Source of the DNA: Bacteroidia bacterium
GTDB taxonomy: Bacteria > Bacteroidota > Bacteroidia > Bacteroidales > VadinHA17
Assembly: GCA_026391215.1 (NCBI GenBank)
Contig: JAPLDX010000065.1
Span: 330-64,329 of the forward strand
DNA: 64,000 nt
Reading direction: 5' to 3'
A program made the translations under genes and the position numbers. Of the stretch, positions 1 through 55,625 are shown piece by piece (positions within the stretch are counted from its first letter, which is position 1; each line of letters opens with the position of its first letter). The notes beneath the pieces are model-generated. The model had not been told where the DNA came from and made no database searches. It saw nothing but the letters and a program-made list of their open reading frames with translations.

Positions 1-664
1 CAGGATTAACTATAAGATATGGTTGTGACGGCGCCTTGCCTGTGCTGAAACCTCCGATGGCAAAGCCTCCTTTCGGTCCCTTGTCACCATCAGATACATA
101 GATCCGTACTCCTTCATTATACACAGCAAATACTGTCTGCCCTGTTTTATTCTTTACCTCAAATAAAGCTTCGGTGTTTGACGCTGTGGCTGGGGCTTTG
201 ACCTTTAAGTTCTTCAGGGGACCTCCAAGGCTGTCTGCCACCATGGCATAGGGTACTGACCACAGCGGTTCTATACCCATGACTGTACTGTTGATCTTAG
301 TCCTGATATATAAAGGTGTCTTTGTCCAGTCTATAAGACTGAAATCACCTGTCTGGGTAAGTCCGCCTCCGACAACTATGTTAAACAATCCCTGGGTATT
401 GGGATAGATATCATCATGCAATTCTTCCCATAACACAACCGGGATTTCCGTGTCATCAGTTGTTATAGCAATATAAATATCTATCGGGCCTTCAAGAGGT
501 CCGTCTCCATCACGGGCAATGGCCTGGTAATTAAATCCCTGAGGGATCTGGCTCAGGGCGGAGGGCGCAGGGCAAAGAGTAAAAAGACACACGACATACG
601 ACACAAGCTTTGCCCACCGAAGCCAGGCGAAGGTGGGACATAAGGGGGAGAGTTTTGTTTTCAT
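1..664 (-). CDS. Tail-fibre-like secreted protein, paralogue 3 (5' part only, runs off window start)
   Basis: ATG at 664-662; absent from the ORF track because the window edge truncates it. My translation MKTKLSPLCPTFAWLRW..SALSQIPQGFNYQAIARDG..LWSVPYAMVA..FEVKNKTGQTVFAVYNEGVRIYVSDGDKGPKGGFAIGGFSTGK is collinear with the N-termini of 930..5720 and 6016..8790. Confidence 0.8.
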   Translation of the reverse strand, partial: MKTKLSPLCPTFAWLRWAKLVSYVVCLFTLCPAPSALSQIPQGFNYQAIARDGDGPLEGPIDIYIAITTDDTEIPVVLWEELHDDIYPNTQGLFNIVVGGGLTQTGDFSLIDWTKTPLYIRTKINSTVMGIEPLWSVPYAMVADSLGGPLKNLKVKAPATASNTEALFEVKNKTGQTVFAVYNEGVRIYVSDGDKGPKGGFAIGGFSTGKAPSQPYLIVNP

Positions 665-929: not shown

Positions 930-3900
930 CTATTTTTCTTCTATCAGCTGCTGAACAAGTACTTCGAGTTTCTCAATTTGTCGCTGCTGATCCTGTATAG
1001 CCTTGACAAGTACCGGAACTAGTTTATTATAATTTATACCCCAGAGTTCATGAGATTCGTCTTCAGGTCTGCTTACAACCTCAGGCATAACATCATATAC
1101 CTCCTGTGCTATCAATCCGATATTTTTTTCACCATCACCTAGAATAAGATCATCACCGCTAAATTCAGAAGTGTGCTGAATGTACTGTTTTGGTATGATC
1201 TTCATTATTTCATTCAGCCCGTAGGCCAGGTCCTCCTGTTCAGATTTTACCCGTGTATCTGAATAGGTATCCCAAGCATATCCTTTTGCCTTTTTAACTG
1301 GGTCGTTTGGAAGCTGCAGATAATAATTTGCATCAGGAGGAAGCATACCTATGGTGACCGGTTTGCCGAAATGGTTATACGTGGCGCCATAACCATATGC
1401 AAAATAAGTTCCATTTGACCAGATGGCTTCTAAGCCATTTATTCTCAACGCTATACCCGAAGATATTCCACTATTAAGGTTTGCTAGACCGGCAACATCA
1501 AGTTTATATGAAGCAGGGTTGATACCGATTCCGACATTTCCATTGTTATTGTCAATCCTCATTCGTTCAACAAAACTGGTGCTGAAGTCAGCCTGAGCTA
1601 TACTTGTGGAATAACCAAACACAAGATCATTAGTGGGATCCGTAGTTAAAAACGCAACTCTGGTACCAGAAAGTGCAACCATACCTCCTCTCGACTGACC
1701 AGAATAATGTGCAATCAACGCAGCATTATTGCCCCATGCCTCAACAGAATATTGGGGGTCTTTTGTATAGATACCCACTTTCCCGTTAAATGCAAGTTTT
1801 TCAGATCCATCTGTAAAATCACCCCATATTAAAGGATTAGATGTTGAGTTCTGATCAATATACAATTTGTAATCGCCATCTTCATTCATTCCTGCAGCTC
1901 TTCCGATAAAAACGTTGCGACTGCCATGCGACTGACGGCCAGTCTGCCAACCGACATATGTATTTCCAAAACCCGCCACATTCGAATAGCCTGCATCATA
2001 GCCGAGGAATGTATTTTCATTTGGACCATTTGTAAGAAATCCGGCATAAGATCCGTAAAAAACGTTATGCGTACCTGCTGCCAGCGAGAATCCTGCCTTT
2101 TCCCCTACTAAAGTGTTCAGGTTGTTTGTGGTCAATCCGGCACCAGTAAGCAAGCCAATAGCAACATTTGAATTCCCTTCTGTAATATTATTTCCAGCCT
2201 GGTTACCTATCAGAATATTGTCAAAACCTGATGTTAATTTATTTCCCGTTTGTGAACCAATAATTACATTGTTATAACCTGAAGTTATTTTCCAACCTGC
2301 ATTATAACCCAGAGCCACGTTATTTGCACCAGTCCCAAAGGATATCTCTGATGCCATACCTGCCTGGTACCCAATGTAAGTATTGTAAGATCCGCTGGTA
2401 TAATTTCTTCCTGCTTTATATCCTATAAACGAGTTGAAACTCGAGTTACTTGCACGCCCTGCCTCAAAGCCCAGGAAAGTATTATAGGCACCTGTACTAT
2501 TTTTGTAACCGCTCTCCCTTCCTATAAAAACATTGTAACTTCCTGCAGGGTCAGCGCCTCCGATATTATTAAAGCCCGTACGGTATCCCAGGAAAACATT
2601 ACTGCTCCCGGTGGTATTTTTCATACCTGCCTGGTAACCCATAAAAGAGTTGTACTGACCGGCATTGGTTTTACCACTTCCTTTGCCCAGGAACACGTTG
2701 TAGGAGTTAGTGTTGTCATAACCAGCTGAATCACCAAGAAATACGTTACTGTTCCCGGAAGTGCCTGAGTATCCTGAAAAGTGACCTACAGCAACATTAT
2801 TTGATCCGTCAGAATTTCCATAGCCTGCCATATATCCAAGAAACACATTATCTGAACCTGAGTAAATGTTAAGGCCGGCGCCATTACCAAGAAAAACATT
2901 ATTGGTACTTGAATAGTTATGCCAGCCAGCCTGATTGCCGATCATAACATTGTTTGAAGCAGATGAATTACCTGCCAGTCCACCTCCGGATGCTTCAAAA
3001 CCAAGATAAATATTGTTGCTCCCGTTATAATTTTGAAAGCCCGCCTTATTGCCTAAGAAAACATTATTATTCCCGGAAAAATTATAATAGCCTGCCAGGT
3101 TACCAAATATGAGATTGAATTGTCCACCTTCATTATTTACCCCTGCACTCTGGCCGAGGAAAACATTTGCTCCTCCAACGGTATTCTTTTTACCGGCATA
3201 AGCGCCTATAAAGACATTGTTGTCACCGGTTGTATTTGATGTTCCAGATTGAGATCCCATGAAAACATTATCATATCCTTCATAGTTAGCATAACCTGCA
3301 GAGTCTCCGATAAATACGTTATTCCATGAGTTGCCATTATTATATCCGGCTTTATAACCAAGGAAGACATTTTTATTTCCATTATAATTGTTGAAACCGG
3401 ACTGGAAACCCAGAAAATTATTGAAACGCCCATAAGTATTGGAATATCCTGACTGACTTCCTACGAATACATTATAAGATGCAGTATCATTTGTGAAGCC
3501 GGCCAGATAACCCAGAAAAACATTCCTTGTTCCGCTTTTATTGCTTTTACCGGATTCATAACCCATCATTATATTATATTTCCCGGTTGTAATGTATTTC
3601 CCGACTGATTCTCCTATCAGGACATTTTGCTTCCCATGAGTAGCCAATTCACCTGCCATGCTGCCAATATAGACATTACCTCCTTCTGACAGGTGAGACC
3701 GGCCGGCTTTATAACCAATAAAAGTATTGTCGCTCCCGGTGTTTTTCCAACCAGCCTGATAACCCAGAAATGCATTATATTGTCCTGTATTAATTTTTCC
3801 GCTTCCTGTTCCCAGGAAAACATTATAACTATCTGTGTTATCATATCCTGCCGAATCACCCAGGAACACATTACTGGAACCTATTACTCCCGAATAGCCT

Positions 3901-5720
3901 GATACGTTTCCGATAGCTACATTATTTGATCCGGACTGATTGGAATTTCCAGCCTTAAAGCCTATGAAAACATTATTAATTCCATCCATATTTGCCTTCC
4001 CTGATTCAAAGCCCAGCATGACATTGTAGCTGCCTGTCGAAATATTGGCTCCGACTGACTGGCCTATCAGTACATTCTGTTCTCCATTAGTGGCTTTCTC
4101 TCCTGCCCTGCTGCCTATATATACATTCCCTCCTTGTGACTGGTTTGAACGGCCGGCTAAATAACCTATAAAAGTATTGTCATTTCCGGTATTTGTTAAT
4201 CCAGCCTGATAACCCATGAATGAATTATATTGTCCTGTATTGATTTTACCGCTTCCCTTGCCAAGAAAAACATTAAAACTGTTTGTGTTGCCATATCCTG
4301 CCGAATCACCCAGGAATACATTACTGGAACCAGATGTTCCCAGATAGCCCGATAAGTTCCCAATCGTAACATTATTTGATCCGGTCAGATTCCCCGAACC
4401 TGCTTTGAATCCGAGAAAAACATTGTTGCTCCCGTCAGTGTTATTAAGACCGGTTTCATATCCTACAAATGAATTGTAAAGCCCATCGTTAATATTGGAA
4501 CCACTTTTCTCTCCAATAAAATAGTTTTCGGGAGTCATATCCATGAAGTAAGATGCTTCTCCTTTCCCTGCAGATGTAAAACCACCTATTGCAAATCCTC
4601 CTTTGGGGGATTTAGCTTCAGTATTAACATAAACCCTTGTACTGTCGCGTGTTACACGCAGATACTCTTCATCTATACCTTTGGCCGTCCCATAACCGCC
4701 AATTGCAAATCCTCCCTTTACTCCTTTATCAGAAGGTTCCTTGTCCAGATAGATCCTCACACTGTCGTTGCTCACCATAAACAGATCCTGCGGCTTGCCT
4801 TTTGCTGTACCATAACCTCCGATAGCAAAGCCGCCTTTTACTCCCTTTGTAATATCAGTATCTGCATTGTCAATATATACCCTTACACTGTCGTCACTTA
4901 CGAAAAGGAGATCCTGTGGATCTGACTTGTTTGTACCATATCCCCCTATGGCAAATCCCCCTTTTGCACCTTTACCTGATTGATCAATATAGATTCTTAC
5001 CGTATCAGGTTTTACTATCAGATATGGTTGCGATGGCCCCTTTACCGTACCAAAACCTCCTACTGCAAACCCTCCTTTTGGACCCTTTGACCCATCATCT
5101 ACATATATCCTTACTCCCTCATTATAAACTGCAAATACAATCTGGCCGTCCTTGTTCTTAACCTCAAACAATGATTCATCCATTACTTCTGTTGAACCTG
5201 CCACTTCCAGCTTGCTGAAAGGACCTTCAAGTTTTTCAGCTACCCTGGCAGTATCAGCCACTATTGCATGGTCAGCAACAATCGCATTTTCAGCTACCAT
5301 GGAATAGGGTACTGACCATAATTTCGCATTACCCATATTTTTCCACGATCCCTGGTAATAGAGCTGGACTTTAAGAAATAACGGAGTTGCCGTCCAGTCT
5401 ATATCCGAAAATTCTGCCGCTGCACCCGATAGCCTTGATCCTGTACCTACTACAAGTCCAAAAACACCGGATGCATTTGTTCTGACGGATGAATGAAGCT
5501 CCTCCCATACAATAGCCGGTGTGAGGGTATCGGAGAGGATAGCCATTTTCGCCTGTATTTCAGTATTTGCAACAGGAACTCCATTACTGTTCCGGGCTAC
5601 TGCCTGGTAATTAAATCCCTGCGGGACCTGGCTCAGGGCGGAGGGCGAAGGGCTCAGGGCAAGAAGACACAAGACACAAGACACAAGACACAAGGGGGAG
5701 AGTTTTGGTTTCATGATCAT
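930..5720 (-). CDS. Giant (1596 aa) secreted tail-fibre-like repeat protein with C-terminal S74-type intramolecular chaperone domain
   Basis: Signal peptide. N-domain QVPQGFNYQAVAR..LWSVPYSM is shared with both neighbours. Five ~35-aa repeats VRIYxD..KGxKGGFAIGGYGT, then ~1000 aa of 14-15-aa NxFxGxxAGxxNTxGxxN repeats. C-terminus YSDTRVK..IGLIAQEV..INYNKLVPVLVKAIQ plus a coiled-coil tail fits the SDxRxK / GxIAQE pattern of endosialidase-chaperone (Peptidase_S74) domains. Confidence 0.8.
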   Translation of the reverse strand: MIMKPKLSPLCLVSCVLCLLALSPSPSALSQVPQGFNYQAVARNSNGVPVANTEIQAKMAILSDTLTPAIVWEELHSSVRTNASGVFGLVVGTGSRLSGAAAEFSDIDWTATPLFLKVQLYYQGSWKNMGNAKLWSVPYSMVAENAIVADHAIVADTARVAEKLEGPFSKLEVAGSTEVMDESLFEVKNKDGQIVFAVYNEGVRIYVDDGSKGPKGGFAVGGFGTVKGPSQPYLIVKPDTVRIYIDQSGKGAKGGFAIGGYGTNKSDPQDLLFVSDDSVRVYIDNADTDITKGVKGGFAIGGYGTAKGKPQDLFMVSNDSVRIYLDKEPSDKGVKGGFAIGGYGTAKGIDEEYLRVTRDSTRVYVNTEAKSPKGGFAIGGFTSAGKGEASYFMDMTPENYFIGEKSGSNINDGLYNSFVGYETGLNNTDGSNNVFLGFKAGSGNLTGSNNVTIGNLSGYLGTSGSSNVFLGDSAGYGNTNSFNVFLGKGSGKINTGQYNSFMGYQAGLTNTGNDNTFIGYLAGRSNQSQGGNVYIGSRAGEKATNGEQNVLIGQSVGANISTGSYNVMLGFESGKANMDGINNVFIGFKAGNSNQSGSNNVAIGNVSGYSGVIGSSNVFLGDSAGYDNTDSYNVFLGTGSGKINTGQYNAFLGYQAGWKNTGSDNTFIGYKAGRSHLSEGGNVYIGSMAGELATHGKQNVLIGESVGKYITTGKYNIMMGYESGKSNKSGTRNVFLGYLAGFTNDTASYNVFVGSQSGYSNTYGRFNNFLGFQSGFNNYNGNKNVFLGYKAGYNNGNSWNNVFIGDSAGYANYEGYDNVFMGSQSGTSNTTGDNNVFIGAYAGKKNTVGGANVFLGQSAGVNNEGGQFNLIFGNLAGYYNFSGNNNVFLGNKAGFQNYNGSNNIYLGFEASGGGLAGNSSASNNVMIGNQAGWHNYSSTNNVFLGNGAGLNIYSGSDNVFLGYMAGYGNSDGSNNVAVGHFSGYSGTSGNSNVFLGDSAGYDNTNSYNVFLGKGSGKTNAGQYNSFMGYQAGMKNTTGSSNVFLGYRTGFNNIGGADPAGSYNVFIGRESGYKNSTGAYNTFLGFEAGRASNSSFNSFIGYKAGRNYTSGSYNTYIGYQAGMASEISFGTGANNVALGYNAGWKITSGYNNVIIGSQTGNKLTSGFDNILIGNQAGNNITEGNSNVAIGLLTGAGLTTNNLNTLVGEKAGFSLAAGTHNVFYGSYAGFLTNGPNENTFLGYDAGYSNVAGFGNTYVGWQTGRQSHGSRNVFIGRAAGMNEDGDYKLYIDQNSTSNPLIWGDFTDGSEKLAFNGKVGIYTKDPQYSVEAWGNNAALIAHYSGQSRGGMVALSGTRVAFLTTDPTNDLVFGYSTSIAQADFSTSFVERMRIDNNNGNVGIGINPASYKLDVAGLANLNSGISSGIALRINGLEAIWSNGTYFAYGYGATYNHFGKPVTIGMLPPDANYYLQLPNDPVKKAKGYAWDTYSDTRVKSEQEDLAYGLNEIMKIIPKQYIQHTSEFSGDDLILGDGEKNIGLIAQEVYDVMPEVVSRPEDESHELWGINYNKLVPVLVKAIQDQQRQIEKLEVLVQQLIEEK
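5632..5694 (-). repeat. Heptamer-phased tract inside the signal-peptide coding region, including perfect (AAGACAC)4
   Basis: Plus strand: CTCAGGG CGGAGGG CGAAGGG CTCAGGG CAAGAAG ACACAAG x4. Perfect AAGACAC x4 at 5664-5691. Analogous tracts at 552-607 and 8728-8776 in the paralogues. Confidence 0.9.
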
Positions 5721-5868
5721 ATGGGTATTACGGTTTGACGGTACGATGGTGAGTCATAATAAGGTTGGAATCAAGAATAAAATAGAAAGTTAGTATAAAA
5801 AGGAGATGCAGTCAAATATTTTTGACGAGGGGAAGAGAAAATTCTATTAAAGTATGTTTATGAATGAT

Positions 5869-6015
5869 GTACCCCCTTCCGGCTAAAGCCGGATCCCCCC
5901 TGAAGGGGAGCTAAATCCAGTTCTCAAACAAACTCCTGTAGAAAACAGGTTTTAAGCCCCCTCAAGGGGGCAGGCCTCGCTTCAGCGAGGCCGGGGGTCC
6001 TTTGAGCCGTTGCGC
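5869..6015. repeat. Nested-palindrome intergenic element, copy B
   Basis: Same architecture as 781..929 with stems TCCGGC-TAAA-GCCGGA, CCCCCC-TGAA-GGGGAG, GCCCCC-TCAA-GGGGGC and GGCCTCGC-TTCA-GCGAGGCC; outer ACCCCC/GGGGGT. Confidence 0.85.
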
Positions 6016-8790
6016 CTATTTATTCTTCAGCTCCTCCACTTCTTTTTTAAGCTCATCTATCTGCTTCTGCTGATCCTTGACAGCCTGAACAAGGATGGCA
6101 GTTAAAACACCATAATTAACCGCTTTGTATCCTTTTTCATCAGTTCTGACAGCGTCAGGGAACGCTTTTTCTAAATCCTGAGCTATTACTCCAATATACT
6201 TTGTGTCATCTGGTTCTTCTCCTTTTACGACATCTTTCTTATAATTATACTCTATGACAGCAAGATCCCTTACTTTGTCAATGACCCCATCACCATCTAT
6301 AGACCTTACATTCTGCTTCAAACGAATATCAGAAGGTGTCCAAACTCCAGTGGCATACGCTGACCCTGAAATATATAATCTGTAGATGGATGATGGTGCC
6401 GAATTGATCCCTACATATGCGTTGAATCTGAGGTATTCATTATAAAAGTCACCGTAAATGAGAGCGCCGGTTGAGGAATAACCATAGTTATCGATATATA
6501 ATTTATCAGATCCAGTTTCATAATATCCTGCCCAATGCCCAATGAAAACATTATTTGAACCGGTGGTGTTTGTATAACCTGCCGCGGGACCAATAATGGT
6601 ATTATACTCCCCGGAAATATTATCATGACCCGACTCATGTCCGAAGAATGCATTTCCTTTTCCGGTTGTTGTGGCATAGCCAGCCATGTGTCCAACTATC
6701 GTATTGTAGTTATTAGTAATTACTTTCCCGGCAGCATTACCCACGATTGTGTTGTATGAGCCTGTTGCACTTGTACCTGCAATATTTCCCAGGTAAACGT
6801 TATGCTCGCCTGCCGTACTTGCATACCCGGCTTCTGAGCCTGCATAAAGATTATAACCTCCGGAAATATTTGAACTTCCTGCCAGGTTGCCGATAAAAGT
6901 GTTATAAGTCCCCGTTGTATTATCATACCCTGCATCGCTTCCGAGTATCACATTCTTTTCTCCTGTTGTTGTGGCCTGACCAGCATTATTTCCTATAAGA
7001 ACATTATAATTGCCAAGATTATCATAACCGGCAAAGTTTCCCATGAAGACTCCGGCTTTTCCCATGTTATTGTACCCGGCATCAGTTCCGATAGCCACGT
7101 TGTAGCTTGCAGTGTCATTATAGTATCCGGCGCCCATACCAATGAAAATATTTTGTTTCCCTTTCAGATTGGTGTAACCTGACTCCTGTCCGAGAAAGAC
7201 ATTGAACCTGCCGTTATTATTATATCCTGCAAGGGTACCGATAGCCACGTTATATGATCCTGAACTTGTGGCTGTATGCTTTGCAAGTTCTCCTGCACCA
7301 TTTCCAATAAAAACATTTGATACGCTTGTCTCATTTGATAATCCTGCATTCTTCCCGAGAAAGACATTATAGCTTCCTTCAGTATTATTAAAACCTGTCG
7401 AATCCCCCAAAAATGTATTAGCAGATCCTTCAGTTGTACTATAACCTGACATATAGCCTAGGAATAAGTTGTATAATCCAGTTGTAATTGACTTACCGCT
7501 GTTATGTCCGATGAAATAGTTCTTGGGAGTAAGCTGGAGAAAGCTTTCTGATCCGGCTTTGGCTGTACCGAATCCGCCGATTGCAAAGCCTCCCTTGGGA
7601 CCTTTAACCGGATTCTGGTCCACATAAACCCTTACGCTGTCGCTTGTTACTGTCAGGAAATTCTGCGAAGTACCTTTATCAGTTCCGAAACCGCCGATGG
7701 CAAATCCGCCTTTAGGACCTTTTGCGACTCCGTCATCAACATATACCCTTACACCCTCATTATATACAGCAAAGACTGTCTGCCCGTTTTTATTCTTTAC
7801 CCTGAATAAGGCAGAGTCAGGTGAAGTCTCAACACCTTTTATCACCAGCTTGGATTCCGATCCGACTATATTAGCTGCAATATAGTCAGAGTTTACCTTT
7901 AGCTGTGCGTCTATTTTATTATCTGCATCTTTCAGATTCGAAGCTATTTTGATATAATTCGATGATGAGTTTGCAGTGTAACTGCCATTATCATTCAATC
8001 CTGCACCTGTTTCTATCGCATTGGCTTCAGTTTTCAGATTAGTTATGTCCGTATTGAATCCAGAGGTGCTGGTTTCAACTGTTTTTATCTTCGAGTCGAG
8101 CAAATCATCTGCGTTTTTTAAACTTGTTGCTGATGAAATATAATCTGCTGACGTATTTGCAGTGTAACTGCCATTATCATTCAATCCTGCACCTGTTTCT
8201 AATGCAGAGGTGCTGGATTCAACTGTTTTTACCTTTGAGTCGAGCAAATCATCTGCATTCTTTAAACTTGTGGCTGCTGAAATATAATTCGCTGATGTAT
8301 TCGATGAATAGCTTCCATTTGTATTTAAACCTCCTCCGGTTTTTATTGCATCAATTTCAGTTTGCAAACCTGTTATGCTCCCCCCGTTACCTGAAATCAT
8401 TGAATATGGTACGGACCATAATTTTGAGGAACCCATATACTTCCATGCACCCTGGTAATAGATCTGGATTTTAAGATATAGAGGCGTTTTAGACCAGTCA
8501 ATTACACTGAATGTCGCAGCTGATCCTGATTGTTTTATTCCGGTTCCGATGACGATACCGAATACCCCGGATGCATTCGTTTTGACCGATGAATGTAGCT
8601 CTTCCCATACTACAACAGGTGTTAGCGTATCGGAGAGAATACTCGCTTTTACCTGGAAGGTGGTCGATGCAATTGCCTGACCTGAGCTATTACGAGCTAC
8701 AGCCTGGTAATTAAAGCCTTGCGGCACCTGAGAAGATAAAAGATAAAAGGAAAAAGACAAAAGAAGTGTAAGGAGGAGTTTTGTTTTCAT
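6016..8790 (-). CDS. Tail-fibre-like secreted repeat protein (924 aa) with C-terminal S74-type chaperone domain
   Basis: Same N-domain (QVPQGFNYQAVARNSSG..LWSVPYSM). Three GAGLNDNGSYTANTSADYISSATSLKNADDLLDSK repeats, two KGPKGGFAIGGFGT repeats and NxFxGxxAG repeats. C-terminus PSDIRLKQNV..IGVIAQDLE..VNYGVLTAILVQAVK plus coiled coil. Confidence 0.8.
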   Translation of the reverse strand: MKTKLLLTLLLSFSFYLLSSQVPQGFNYQAVARNSSGQAIASTTFQVKASILSDTLTPVVVWEELHSSVKTNASGVFGIVIGTGIKQSGSAATFSVIDWSKTPLYLKIQIYYQGAWKYMGSSKLWSVPYSMISGNGGSITGLQTEIDAIKTGGGLNTNGSYSSNTSANYISAATSLKNADDLLDSKVKTVESSTSALETGAGLNDNGSYTANTSADYISSATSLKNADDLLDSKIKTVETSTSGFNTDITNLKTEANAIETGAGLNDNGSYTANSSSNYIKIASNLKDADNKIDAQLKVNSDYIAANIVGSESKLVIKGVETSPDSALFRVKNKNGQTVFAVYNEGVRVYVDDGVAKGPKGGFAIGGFGTDKGTSQNFLTVTSDSVRVYVDQNPVKGPKGGFAIGGFGTAKAGSESFLQLTPKNYFIGHNSGKSITTGLYNLFLGYMSGYSTTEGSANTFLGDSTGFNNTEGSYNVFLGKNAGLSNETSVSNVFIGNGAGELAKHTATSSGSYNVAIGTLAGYNNNGRFNVFLGQESGYTNLKGKQNIFIGMGAGYYNDTASYNVAIGTDAGYNNMGKAGVFMGNFAGYDNLGNYNVLIGNNAGQATTTGEKNVILGSDAGYDNTTGTYNTFIGNLAGSSNISGGYNLYAGSEAGYASTAGEHNVYLGNIAGTSATGSYNTIVGNAAGKVITNNYNTIVGHMAGYATTTGKGNAFFGHESGHDNISGEYNTIIGPAAGYTNTTGSNNVFIGHWAGYYETGSDKLYIDNYGYSSTGALIYGDFYNEYLRFNAYVGINSAPSSIYRLYISGSAYATGVWTPSDIRLKQNVRSIDGDGVIDKVRDLAVIEYNYKKDVVKGEEPDDTKYIGVIAQDLEKAFPDAVRTDEKGYKAVNYGVLTAILVQAVKDQQKQIDELKKEVEELKNK

Positions 8791-55149: not shown

Positions 55150-55294
55150 CCCCCGTCCATGCTGAAGCATGGCCTGCCCCCTAAAGGGGGCTCAAAACCA
55201 TTTACCTATTTTGATTAGTGGTGGGTTTTAGACCCCCTTCAGGGGGTGCTGCGAAGCAGCGGGGGTTCTTACCTTCAGGGGGGGTGGGGGGTCA
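55147..55294. repeat. Nested-palindrome element, copy G
   Basis: Outer TGACCCCC / GGGGGTCA. Inner CCATGC-TGAA-GCATGG, GCCCCC-TAAA-GGGGGC, ACCCCC-TTCA-GGGGGT and GCTGC-GAA-GCAGC. The left arm contains the TGA stop of 53461..55149. Confidence 0.8.
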
Positions 55295-55533
55295 TCAGAC
55301 AGGGAAGTAAGTATCCTTAGTGCCTCCTCTCTTGAATTTCCGCAAAATTCTGGTTCCGGCTTGAAGTTAACACATACTTTTGGTCTTATACGATCTCCGT
55401 ACAGTGCACATTTATTATCATCAAGCAGATGAATGCATTTTAGCCCTGCCGGCTTGCCCTCAGGCATTCCGGGAATCGGTGAAGATATAGATATCGCGAT
55501 ACAGCAAGCACCGCAGTCTTCTCTGCAATCCAT
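55228..55533 (-). CDS. YkgJ-family Cys-cluster (zinc/iron-chelating) protein
   Basis: MDCREDCGACCI..KCIHL..NKCALY..VCVNF CxxCxxCC-type pattern. The last ~22 codons lie inside repeat element 55147..55294. Confidence 0.6.
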   Translation of the reverse strand: MDCREDCGACCIAISISSPIPGMPEGKPAGLKCIHLLDDNKCALYGDRIRPKVCVNFKPEPEFCGNSREEALRILTSLSDDPPPPLKVRTPAASQHPLKGV

Positions 55534-55538
55534 TGAGG

Positions 55539-55625
55539 AAAGATAAAAGATAAAAGTAAAAAGATAAAAGTAAATAGGGAAATATTCAGATTTTAACCGT
55601 TGAACCTTGGTACCGTTGAGCCTTA
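55539..55625 (-). repeat. A-rich 7-nt array (55539-55575) plus 8-nt CAANGG array (55595-55625)
   Basis: AAAGATA AAAGATA AAAGTAA AAAGATA AAAGTAA. Then AACCGTTG AACCTTGG TACCGTTG AGCCTTA, which is CAACGG/CAAGG units in the sense of the FtsX permease gene whose stop is at 55636. Confidence 0.8.

Follow-up and report, generated by a model that had tools for sequence, protein, structure and literature searches.

Repeats within the codons of a signal peptide are a textbook ON/OFF switch in a few host-adapted pathogens. Does the heptanucleotide repeat that encodes most of the signal peptide of a large fibre-like protein in an uncultured member of the Bacteroidales act as such a switch, or is it there for another reason? 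The gene lies in a stretch of 64,000 nucleotides (the window) of a Bacteroidia bacterium (Bacteroidales; VadinHA17; GenBank assembly GCA_026391215.1, contig JAPLDX010000065.1, positions 330-64,329 of the forward strand); the assembly, G000 below, has 3.39 Mb in 135 contigs and a GC content of 41%. A sequence-only reading of the window had proposed slipped-strand phase variation at this tract. On balance we lean towards a different answer: the tract is part of a signal peptide that is maintained by microsatellite slippage and has a latent, at most low-frequency ON/OFF capacity, with null alleles of a single unit arising at a low rate.

The signal peptide of the fibre gene is built from heptanucleotides

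The fibre gene opens on the minus strand with ATGATCATGAAACCAAAACTCTCCCCC, followed by (TTGTGTC)x4, and its protein product begins with MIMKPKLSPLCLVSCVLCLLALSPSPSALSQVPQGFNYQ. The sequence-only reading had counted nine in-phase units at positions 5632-5694 and all nine are real: four TTGTGTC, one transitional TTCTTGC and four CCTNNGC. The perfect (AAGACAC)4 that it had described on the plus strand, CTTGTGT on the coding strand, was also found by Tandem Repeats Finder (TRF), which extends it to a tract of 31 nt (array 1, Table 1). Array 1 occupies codons 8-17, whose product LCLVSCVLCL forms the hydrophobic core of the signal peptide. Directly behind it stands array 2, a degenerate (GCCCTNN)x4 with the coding-strand units CCTGAGC CCTTCGC CCTCCGC CCTGAGC; together with the transitional unit it encodes LALSPSPSALS, which is the end of the hydrophobic (h-) region and the c-region. 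The coding strand then continues with CAG GTC CCG CAG GGA TTT AAT TAC CAG.

One correction concerns the start codon: the start that agrees with the family consensus is the second ATG (5714-5712, MKPKL...) and not the first one, which lies in frame 6 nt further upstream (5718-5720). From the consensus ATG at 5714 to the Gln codon at 5630-5628 there are 84 nt, or 12 phased heptads. Judged by inspection of the sequence and by the match to the conserved QxPQGFNYQ, the predicted signal peptide is MKPK / LSPLCLVSCVLCLLAL / SPSPSALS, with cleavage before QVPQGFNYQ, and has the features of a Sec/signal peptidase I substrate: a basic n-region, a hydrophobic h-region, small residues at positions -3 and -1 and Gln at +1. 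Gln at +1 is the rule after signal peptidase I cleavage in Bacteroidota, and the mature end with Gln as first residue (QxPQGFNYQ) is conserved in all members of the family. A reading as lipoprotein, with LVSC as a lipobox-like motif, was rejected because Cys is missing from the paralogues with other units and the ALS/Q site is present in every one of them.

The consequences of altered unit numbers were obtained by translation. The frame is kept with 1, 4 and 7 units of array 1; the 3-unit variant stops after 19 codons (ending in FLP followed by the stop) and the 5-unit variant after 38 codons, so that the predicted early termination holds for loss and gain of a unit alike. The TGA in the first GCCCTGA unit of array 2 meets one of the two wrong frames.

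Seven-nucleotide phasing is common to a family of fibre-like proteins

The C-terminal Peptidase_S74 domain of the fibre protein, an intramolecular chaperone, is recognised by PF13884 with 28.8 bits (P0001) at a cut-off of 22; a second protein of the set, P0002, reaches 55.4 bits at the same cut-off. Homologue searches returned 646 hits from uncultured Bacteroidales, many of them annotated as "tail fiber domain-containing protein", and the best homologue of the target protein has only 64-66% identity. Signal peptide, N-domain and KGPKGGFAIGGFGT repeats are common to the family, while the bodies vary (YadA-head repeats, Fib_succ_major, FN3). There are about 15 copies in the genome of the window and up to 21 in related genomes.

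The degenerate 7-nt arrays that had been noticed in two paralogues within the window (A and C) were recovered by TRF at 550-605 and 8733-8764, and phasing by seven nucleotides with differing units turned out to be common to these paralogues and to hundreds of homologues. The 162 non-redundant signal-peptide DNAs of the family show mean matches of 0.49, 0.43 and 0.39 at lags of 7, 14 and 21 nt. The control set, 506 signal-peptide-like genes that belong to the same genome but not to the family, reaches 0.27 at lag 7 and has the codon period (lag 3) as its sole signal; the difference between family and control at lag 7 is highly significant (Mann-Whitney p = 4e-54). Between MK(T/P)KL and the Gln of the cleavage site, the general layout is a T-rich array 1 (TTNTNTC) followed by a C-rich array 2 (CCTNNGC). 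The unit varies from gene to gene (TTGTGTC, GTGTGTC, TTGCGTC, TTGTATC, TTTTATC, TTTTGTC, CCTTTCT, TCTTTGG) and the phase is retained. The signal peptides fall into length classes of 63/84 and 66/87/108 nt, which are steps of 21 nt or three units; the common 87-nt signal peptide contains exactly 12 heptads counted from the ATG, and in this class arrays 1 and 2 exchange units (4+4 or 6+2) at constant total. The 7-nt period must arise at the level of the DNA, because the three frames read each unit differently and selection on the protein cannot make it.

Array 1 evolves in concert within each gene: its units are more alike within a gene (identity 0.746) than between genes at the same position (0.651). 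For array 2 the relation is reversed (0.687 within and 0.763 between genes), as in ordinary conserved sequence, although these array-2 figures are partly biased as the search pattern held the last array-2 unit fixed. The homogenisation of array-1 units within genes suggests that slippage is ongoing on an evolutionary time scale. In the nearest relatives of the target (L178; 64% and 62% identity) the 4+1+4 layout of units is kept and array 1 is imperfect, and the target tract is most likely the currently most homogeneous copy of a signal peptide that is built from a microsatellite throughout the family.

Table 1. Coordinates of the fibre gene, its signal-peptide repeats and its paralogues in the window
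Feature	Position	Strand	Details
Fibre gene, 1596 aa	930..5720	-	signal peptide, conserved N-domain of ~110 aa, KGPKGGFAIGGFGT repeats, long body of NxFxGxxAG repeats, C-terminal Peptidase_S74
Array 1, perfect heptanucleotide tract C-(TTGTGTC)x4-TT	5664..5694	-	TRF period 7, 4.4 copies, 100% matches
Transitional unit TTCTTGC and array 2 (4 degenerate CCTNNGC units)	5631..5665	-	TRF 5630-5660, 79% matches
Family-consensus start codon, ATG of MKPKL	5712..5714	-	family 5' ends open with ATGAAA(A/C)CAAAA
CAG (Gln), predicted mature residue 1 (ALS/QVPQGFNYQ), 3' anchor of the heptad phase	5628..5630	-	by inspection
Short array of 8-nt period, ACCGTCAA-like units, abutting the start codon upstream	5721..5751	-	relatives carry more units there
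Paralogue A gene	2..664	-	runs past the window edge
Paralogue A, degenerate 7-nt arrays in signal peptide	550..605	-	TRF 550-573 and 586-605; lag-7 match 0.46
Paralogue C gene, 924 aa	6016..8790	-	
Paralogue C, degenerate CTTTTAT-type array in signal peptide	8733..8764	-	TRF 4.6 copies, 84%; lag-7 match 0.52

Two further kinds of sequence were observed around the signal peptides. Many family members carry in-frame palindromic inserts of about 30-80 nt, which encode PTFAWLRWAK, K(K/T)FGSNVS or TGLRPV; examples are paralogue A (window ~608-642), a paralogue at G000 C69:2930-3000 and the loci L092, L095 and L155-L159. The insert of the C69 paralogue has matches among hairpin elements that are dispersed over other parts of the genome (C89, C109), indicating that elements resembling repetitive extragenic palindromes (REP) or miniature inverted-repeat transposable elements (MITE) insert into signal-peptide codons and are tolerated there, lengthening the n-region. 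Arrays of 8-nt period (ACCGTCAA or CATACCGT type) lie directly upstream of fibre start codons in the window (5721-5751) and in L178 (4440-4500), L091 and L093; the window has about 3 such units, L178 about 6 and L088 at least 7, and these differences could change the length of the 5' untranslated region.

Fibre-like proteins of the window (930-8790) and their homologues combine a signal peptide of the signal peptidase I type with a self-cleaving S74 chaperone at the C-terminus, and in passing no obvious C-terminal domain of the type IX secretion system and no obvious lipobox was noticed in them. Whether the fibre proteins would reach the cell surface, and by which route, bears on any rationale for phase variation.

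Period-7 repeats in the genome

The 3.39-Mb assembly has 11 perfect period-7 tracts with at least 3 units and 7 with at least 4 units, and the target tract is the only one of at least 4 units at the 5' end of a long open reading frame (ORF). Five simulated genomes with the same dinucleotide statistics contained no period-7 tract of at least 21 nt, compared with the 11 observed (7 of at least 28 nt). Equally frequent tracts in cytoplasmic genes were an outcome that the sequence-only reading had named as one against itself, and they are not seen: in the genome of the window, a TRF period-7 array is present within the first 200 nt of 7 of the 15 family genes, versus 4 of 2666 other genes (Fisher p = 1e-14).

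In G000, perfect tandem repeats of at least 3 units number 11 for period 7, 19 for period 8 and 7 for period 9; the counts are 3 for period 5, 5 for period 6 and 0 for periods 10-12. The arrays of 7-9 nt are thus in excess, and lie mostly at gene boundaries, at starts as well as ends. The units CTTTTAT, CTTTTGT and GCCCTGA of signal-peptide arrays recur in arrays elsewhere in the genome, including intergenic ones. One of these, (CTTTTAT/CTTTTTA)x5 at window positions 55539-55574, ends 5 nt upstream of the ATG (55533) of a small, Cys-rich gene that is unrelated (55228..55533, minus strand); since it shares its unit with several fibre signal peptides, T-rich arrays at start sites might be the raw material of signal peptides. 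The array-2 unit is found outside the window as (GCCCTGA)x7.7 at G000 C64:4402-4455, close to where the ORF of a small membrane protein ends.

Does the tract switch?

The 5' ends of the fibre family were gathered irrespective of their start codon from two sources: metagenome and GTDB contigs, which were searched with a DNA pattern for the conserved mature N-terminus, and genomes of the same family. The 5' end is in frame in 96 of about 98 cases in one sample and in 79 of 80 in the other, and only one frameshift of the unit type (L082) was found in about 180 unbiased 5' ends. In L082 the distance from ATG to Gln is 91 nt (84+7), array 2 has a 14-nt duplication, array 1 has one unit fewer and the frame of the ATG stops after 36 codons. 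The remaining exceptions are one start with ATT in place of ATG (L088, same locus as L117) and cases at contig edges or with masked sequence. In L088 (minus strand, ~5343), the ATT (ATTAAAACAAAAC) is preceded by (ACCGTAAT)x7; it is either a rare start codon or the mark of an inactivated copy.

A further allele that is out of frame by one heptamer, L177, came from a targeted search for anomalies and was therefore left out of the unbiased rate: its signal peptide has 115 nt, exactly 7 nt more than the 108 nt of the 95%-identical L176, and its body of 1147 aa is intact. L177 has an in-frame GTG inside a palindromic insert, which is a possible alternative start and could give an alternative signal peptide. 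L176 and L177 are alleles of one fibre gene and their 5' ends are disrupted differently: L176 was rejected as an OFF state caused by unit slip, as what disrupts it is the loss of 1 nt in CAGACCCC(G)CAGGG, right behind the signal peptide. Four proteins with missing N-terminus (P0019, P0022, P0039 and P0060) were likewise rejected as OFF alleles; their DNA has in-frame upstream ATGs and the truncation is due to the choice of start by the gene caller.

The longest perfect tract among the 162 signal peptides has 33 nt or 4.7 units (L087, followed by L150 with 32 nt and L122 with 31 nt), and all 14 perfect tracts of at least 24 nt are in frame. Near-identical alleles are equally uniform: signal peptides, and with them tract lengths, are identical within each of 11 groups whose alleles come from different samples and are 98-100% identical, with tracts of 17-26 nt among them, and changes of the unit type are absent from 19 of 20 protein clusters at 90% identity. 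For the target tract itself, a search of metagenome contigs with exact flanks and variable gap identified no second allele, and look-ups of the exact protein with both start variants gave no match.

The locus thus has several features of a contingency locus: the tandem repeat is perfect, its unit is not a multiple of 3, it lies near the 5' end of the ORF, and by translation no full-length product is made once a unit is gained or lost. With its 4.4 units it also passes a permissive survey threshold of 3 units (PMC2651432). The genomes do not show mixed ON and OFF states, and the tract is shorter than the range that is hypermutable in experiments. Of the proposed slipped-strand phase variation, the mechanical logic stands, with the unit placed in signal-peptide codons, the early stop on unit change and two alleles (L082, L177) shifted by one heptamer. 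Actual variation finds no support in the testable data, in which tracts have at most 4.7 units, ~98-99% of the 5' ends are in frame, near-identical alleles do not vary and the closest relatives keep the unit count of the target.

A signal peptide probably maintained by slippage, and the alternatives

The explanation that we favour starts from the arithmetic of the repeat. A 7-nt repeat runs through all three frames within 21 nt and its units would give small or hydrophobic residues in each of them; every in-frame array would therefore yield a usable h-region, leaving the sequence only weakly constrained. Slippage during replication would duplicate and delete units, thereby homogenising array 1 within a gene and preserving the 7-nt period in the long term, and selection would retain those versions in which the frame is restored and the signal peptide has a workable length. 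Single-unit slips would be null alleles, such as are occasionally seen. As there are only about four units, the slip rate is probably low and consensus sequences would almost always be ON. Both slippage as the generating process and the low rate of switching are what we infer from these patterns. Several points weigh against so quiet a tract. Minority variants drop out of a consensus assembly, so that switching cells making up as much as some tens of percent of a population would go unnoticed. Two natural alleles are shifted by exactly one heptamer (L082; L177 compared with L176). The gene class, a multi-copy, tandem, variable-bodied family of fibre/adhesin-like proteins, fits classical contingency loci. 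Finally, the period persists across saturated divergence, which implies a rate of slippage at least about that of point mutation and thus a steady supply of OFF alleles.

The last points lead to the alternative of a true contingency locus, maintained by selection for mutability, in which slipped-strand mispairing switches each fibre paralogue reversibly (ON at 1, 4 or 7 units) and cells show different subsets of fibres, for example against phages or grazers or for attachment. Such a locus is conceivable but seems doubtful to us. It would explain why a perfect tract whose one-unit change truncates the product stands right behind the start codon, why the feature is confined to a large family of surface-fibre-like paralogues and why units are homogenised gene by gene, which implies recent slippage; it would also explain the ATGs that are out of frame by exactly 7 nt in L082 and in L177 with its intact body. 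The 3-unit threshold mentioned above was used in a survey of heptanucleotide repeats of Haemophilus influenzae (PMC2651432), and neuO of Escherichia coli shows that heptanucleotide repeats in coding sequence can switch (PMC3046976). Compared with the maximum of 4.7 units, however, proven switches of this unit length tend to be much longer (hmw 13-38 copies; neuO 2-93, typically far above the fibre tracts), and about 1% of the unbiased 5' ends are OFF. The chance that 14 long tracts of random phase are all ON is ~(1/3)^14, near-identical alleles of different samples do not differ in length, and the closest relatives conserve the unit number; hidden minority variants and the suitable gene class are what keep a contingency locus conceivable. 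Rather unlikely, too, is an evolved contingency switch of undescribed design, in which two adjacent arrays make up the entire h-region and c-region and their units give hydrophobic residues whatever the frame; array 1 would thus be free to slip (ON at 1, 4 or 7 units), and array 2 would terminate the wrong frames and could compensate. The result in these environmental, non-pathogenic Bacteroidales would be a low-frequency, stochastic display of subsets of the 10-20 fibre paralogues of a cell, and alternative in-frame starts, like the GTG of L177, might rescue shifted alleles.

A different origin of the periodicity, through gene conversion or recombination between the 5' ends of paralogues or through copying of intergenic arrays with the same unit, would make the perfect tract a by-product of no particular mutability and is improbable: the 10-21 paralogues per genome do have near-identical flanks (MKTKL and SQVPQGFNYQ), and CTTTTAT, CTTTTGT and GCCCTGA are also present as intergenic arrays, but units are alike within genes and unlike between neighbouring paralogues of one genome, which is the opposite of what conversion should produce, and the steps in length, of 7 and 21 nt, agree with slippage. 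Even less probable is a functional nucleic-acid element whose coding role is secondary, be it a protein-binding site, a structure at the 5' end of the mRNA or one arm of a hairpin cassette. A pyrimidine-rich, unstructured sequence past the start codon could aid initiation, but the tract has no inverted partner within the 340 nt from 5560 to 5900, the 5' region of 181 nt folds like its shuffled versions (z = 0.08), which led us to reject a hairpin arm or RNA structure at the locus, and the wholly different units of the paralogues argue against a shared binding site. Chance, a bias from the composition of hydrophobic codons or an assembly artefact is hardly credible. Signal peptides are T-rich and of low complexity, but chance and composition are rejected by the simulated genomes, which have no such tract, and by the control signal peptides, which have no lag-7 signal; at 31 nt the tract fits within a single read, and assemblies made independently show the same architecture.

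Comparison with known repeat systems

The opa genes of Neisseria, to which the sequence-only reading had likened the locus, carry (CTCTT)n where the hydrophobic signal-peptide core is encoded; they form a multi-copy family of surface proteins and are turned ON and OFF by frameshifts. Their tracts have about 7-28 units, most copies in a genome are OFF and tract lengths differ between isolates. The fibre family resembles opa in having a coding repeat, of a unit length not divisible by 3, in the signal-peptide core of a multi-copy family, and differs from it with its at most 4.7 units, ~99% of genes ON and equal tract lengths in near-identical alleles.

Closest in unit length is neuO, the polysialate O-acetyltransferase gene of the CUS-3 prophage of E. 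coli K1, which switches at high frequency by a poly-psi heptanucleotide repeat of variable number (VNTR) with 2-93 copies (PMC3046976). In both systems the coding region carries heptanucleotide units at its 5' end, close behind the start codon, and the frame is kept at every third copy number; in neuO three units encode one residue heptad (PMC3046976). The neuO repeats, however, encode a hydrophilic cytoplasmic extension of the N-terminus (RLKTQDS) and belong to a single prophage gene, whereas the fibre locus has 4.4 copies in one of two adjacent arrays, a signal peptide with predicted cleavage and hundreds of family genes. In H. influenzae, the heptanucleotide repeats of hmw1A and hmw2A are mostly located in the promoter, where 13-38 copies modulate transcription, and one strain has a frameshifted (AATTTTG)14 within the hmw ORF (PMC2651432). 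What hmw shares with the fibre genes is the association of heptanucleotide repeats with large adhesin genes; unlike in the fibre genes, none of its repeats is in a signal peptide.

Intergenic tandem arrays with units of 7-9 nt are also known, namely the short tandemly repeated repetitive (STRR) sequences of cyanobacteria and the GGGNATC heptamers of Xanthomonas and Nostoc (PMC4692102). G000 resembles such genomes in its excess of arrays of period 7-9 at gene starts and ends, some of them with signal-peptide units; the fibre arrays differ from STRR and GGGNATC arrays in being pyrimidine-rich, translated and limited to the signal peptides of one family. A simple sequence repeat of the G-quadruplex heptamer type (GGGNATC, mostly intergenic) was ruled out for the fibre genes, since their units, CTTGTGT and GCCCTNN, lack G-tracts and form part of the coding sequence.

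Implications

The logic that serves as a switch in a few pathogens recurs here with a unit of 7 nt: it is the conserved plan on which the signal peptides of hundreds of fibre genes are built in free-living, uncultured Bacteroidales from sediments and digesters. If switching is true, surface fibres of environmental bacteria would join the known cases of phase variation and the repeat would be a simple marker for variable surface proteins in metagenomes. If there is no switching, the family would be a natural case of a signal peptide that is made and continually rewritten by microsatellite slippage under constraints on frame and length only, with a bearing on how signal peptides originate and on their fast divergence.

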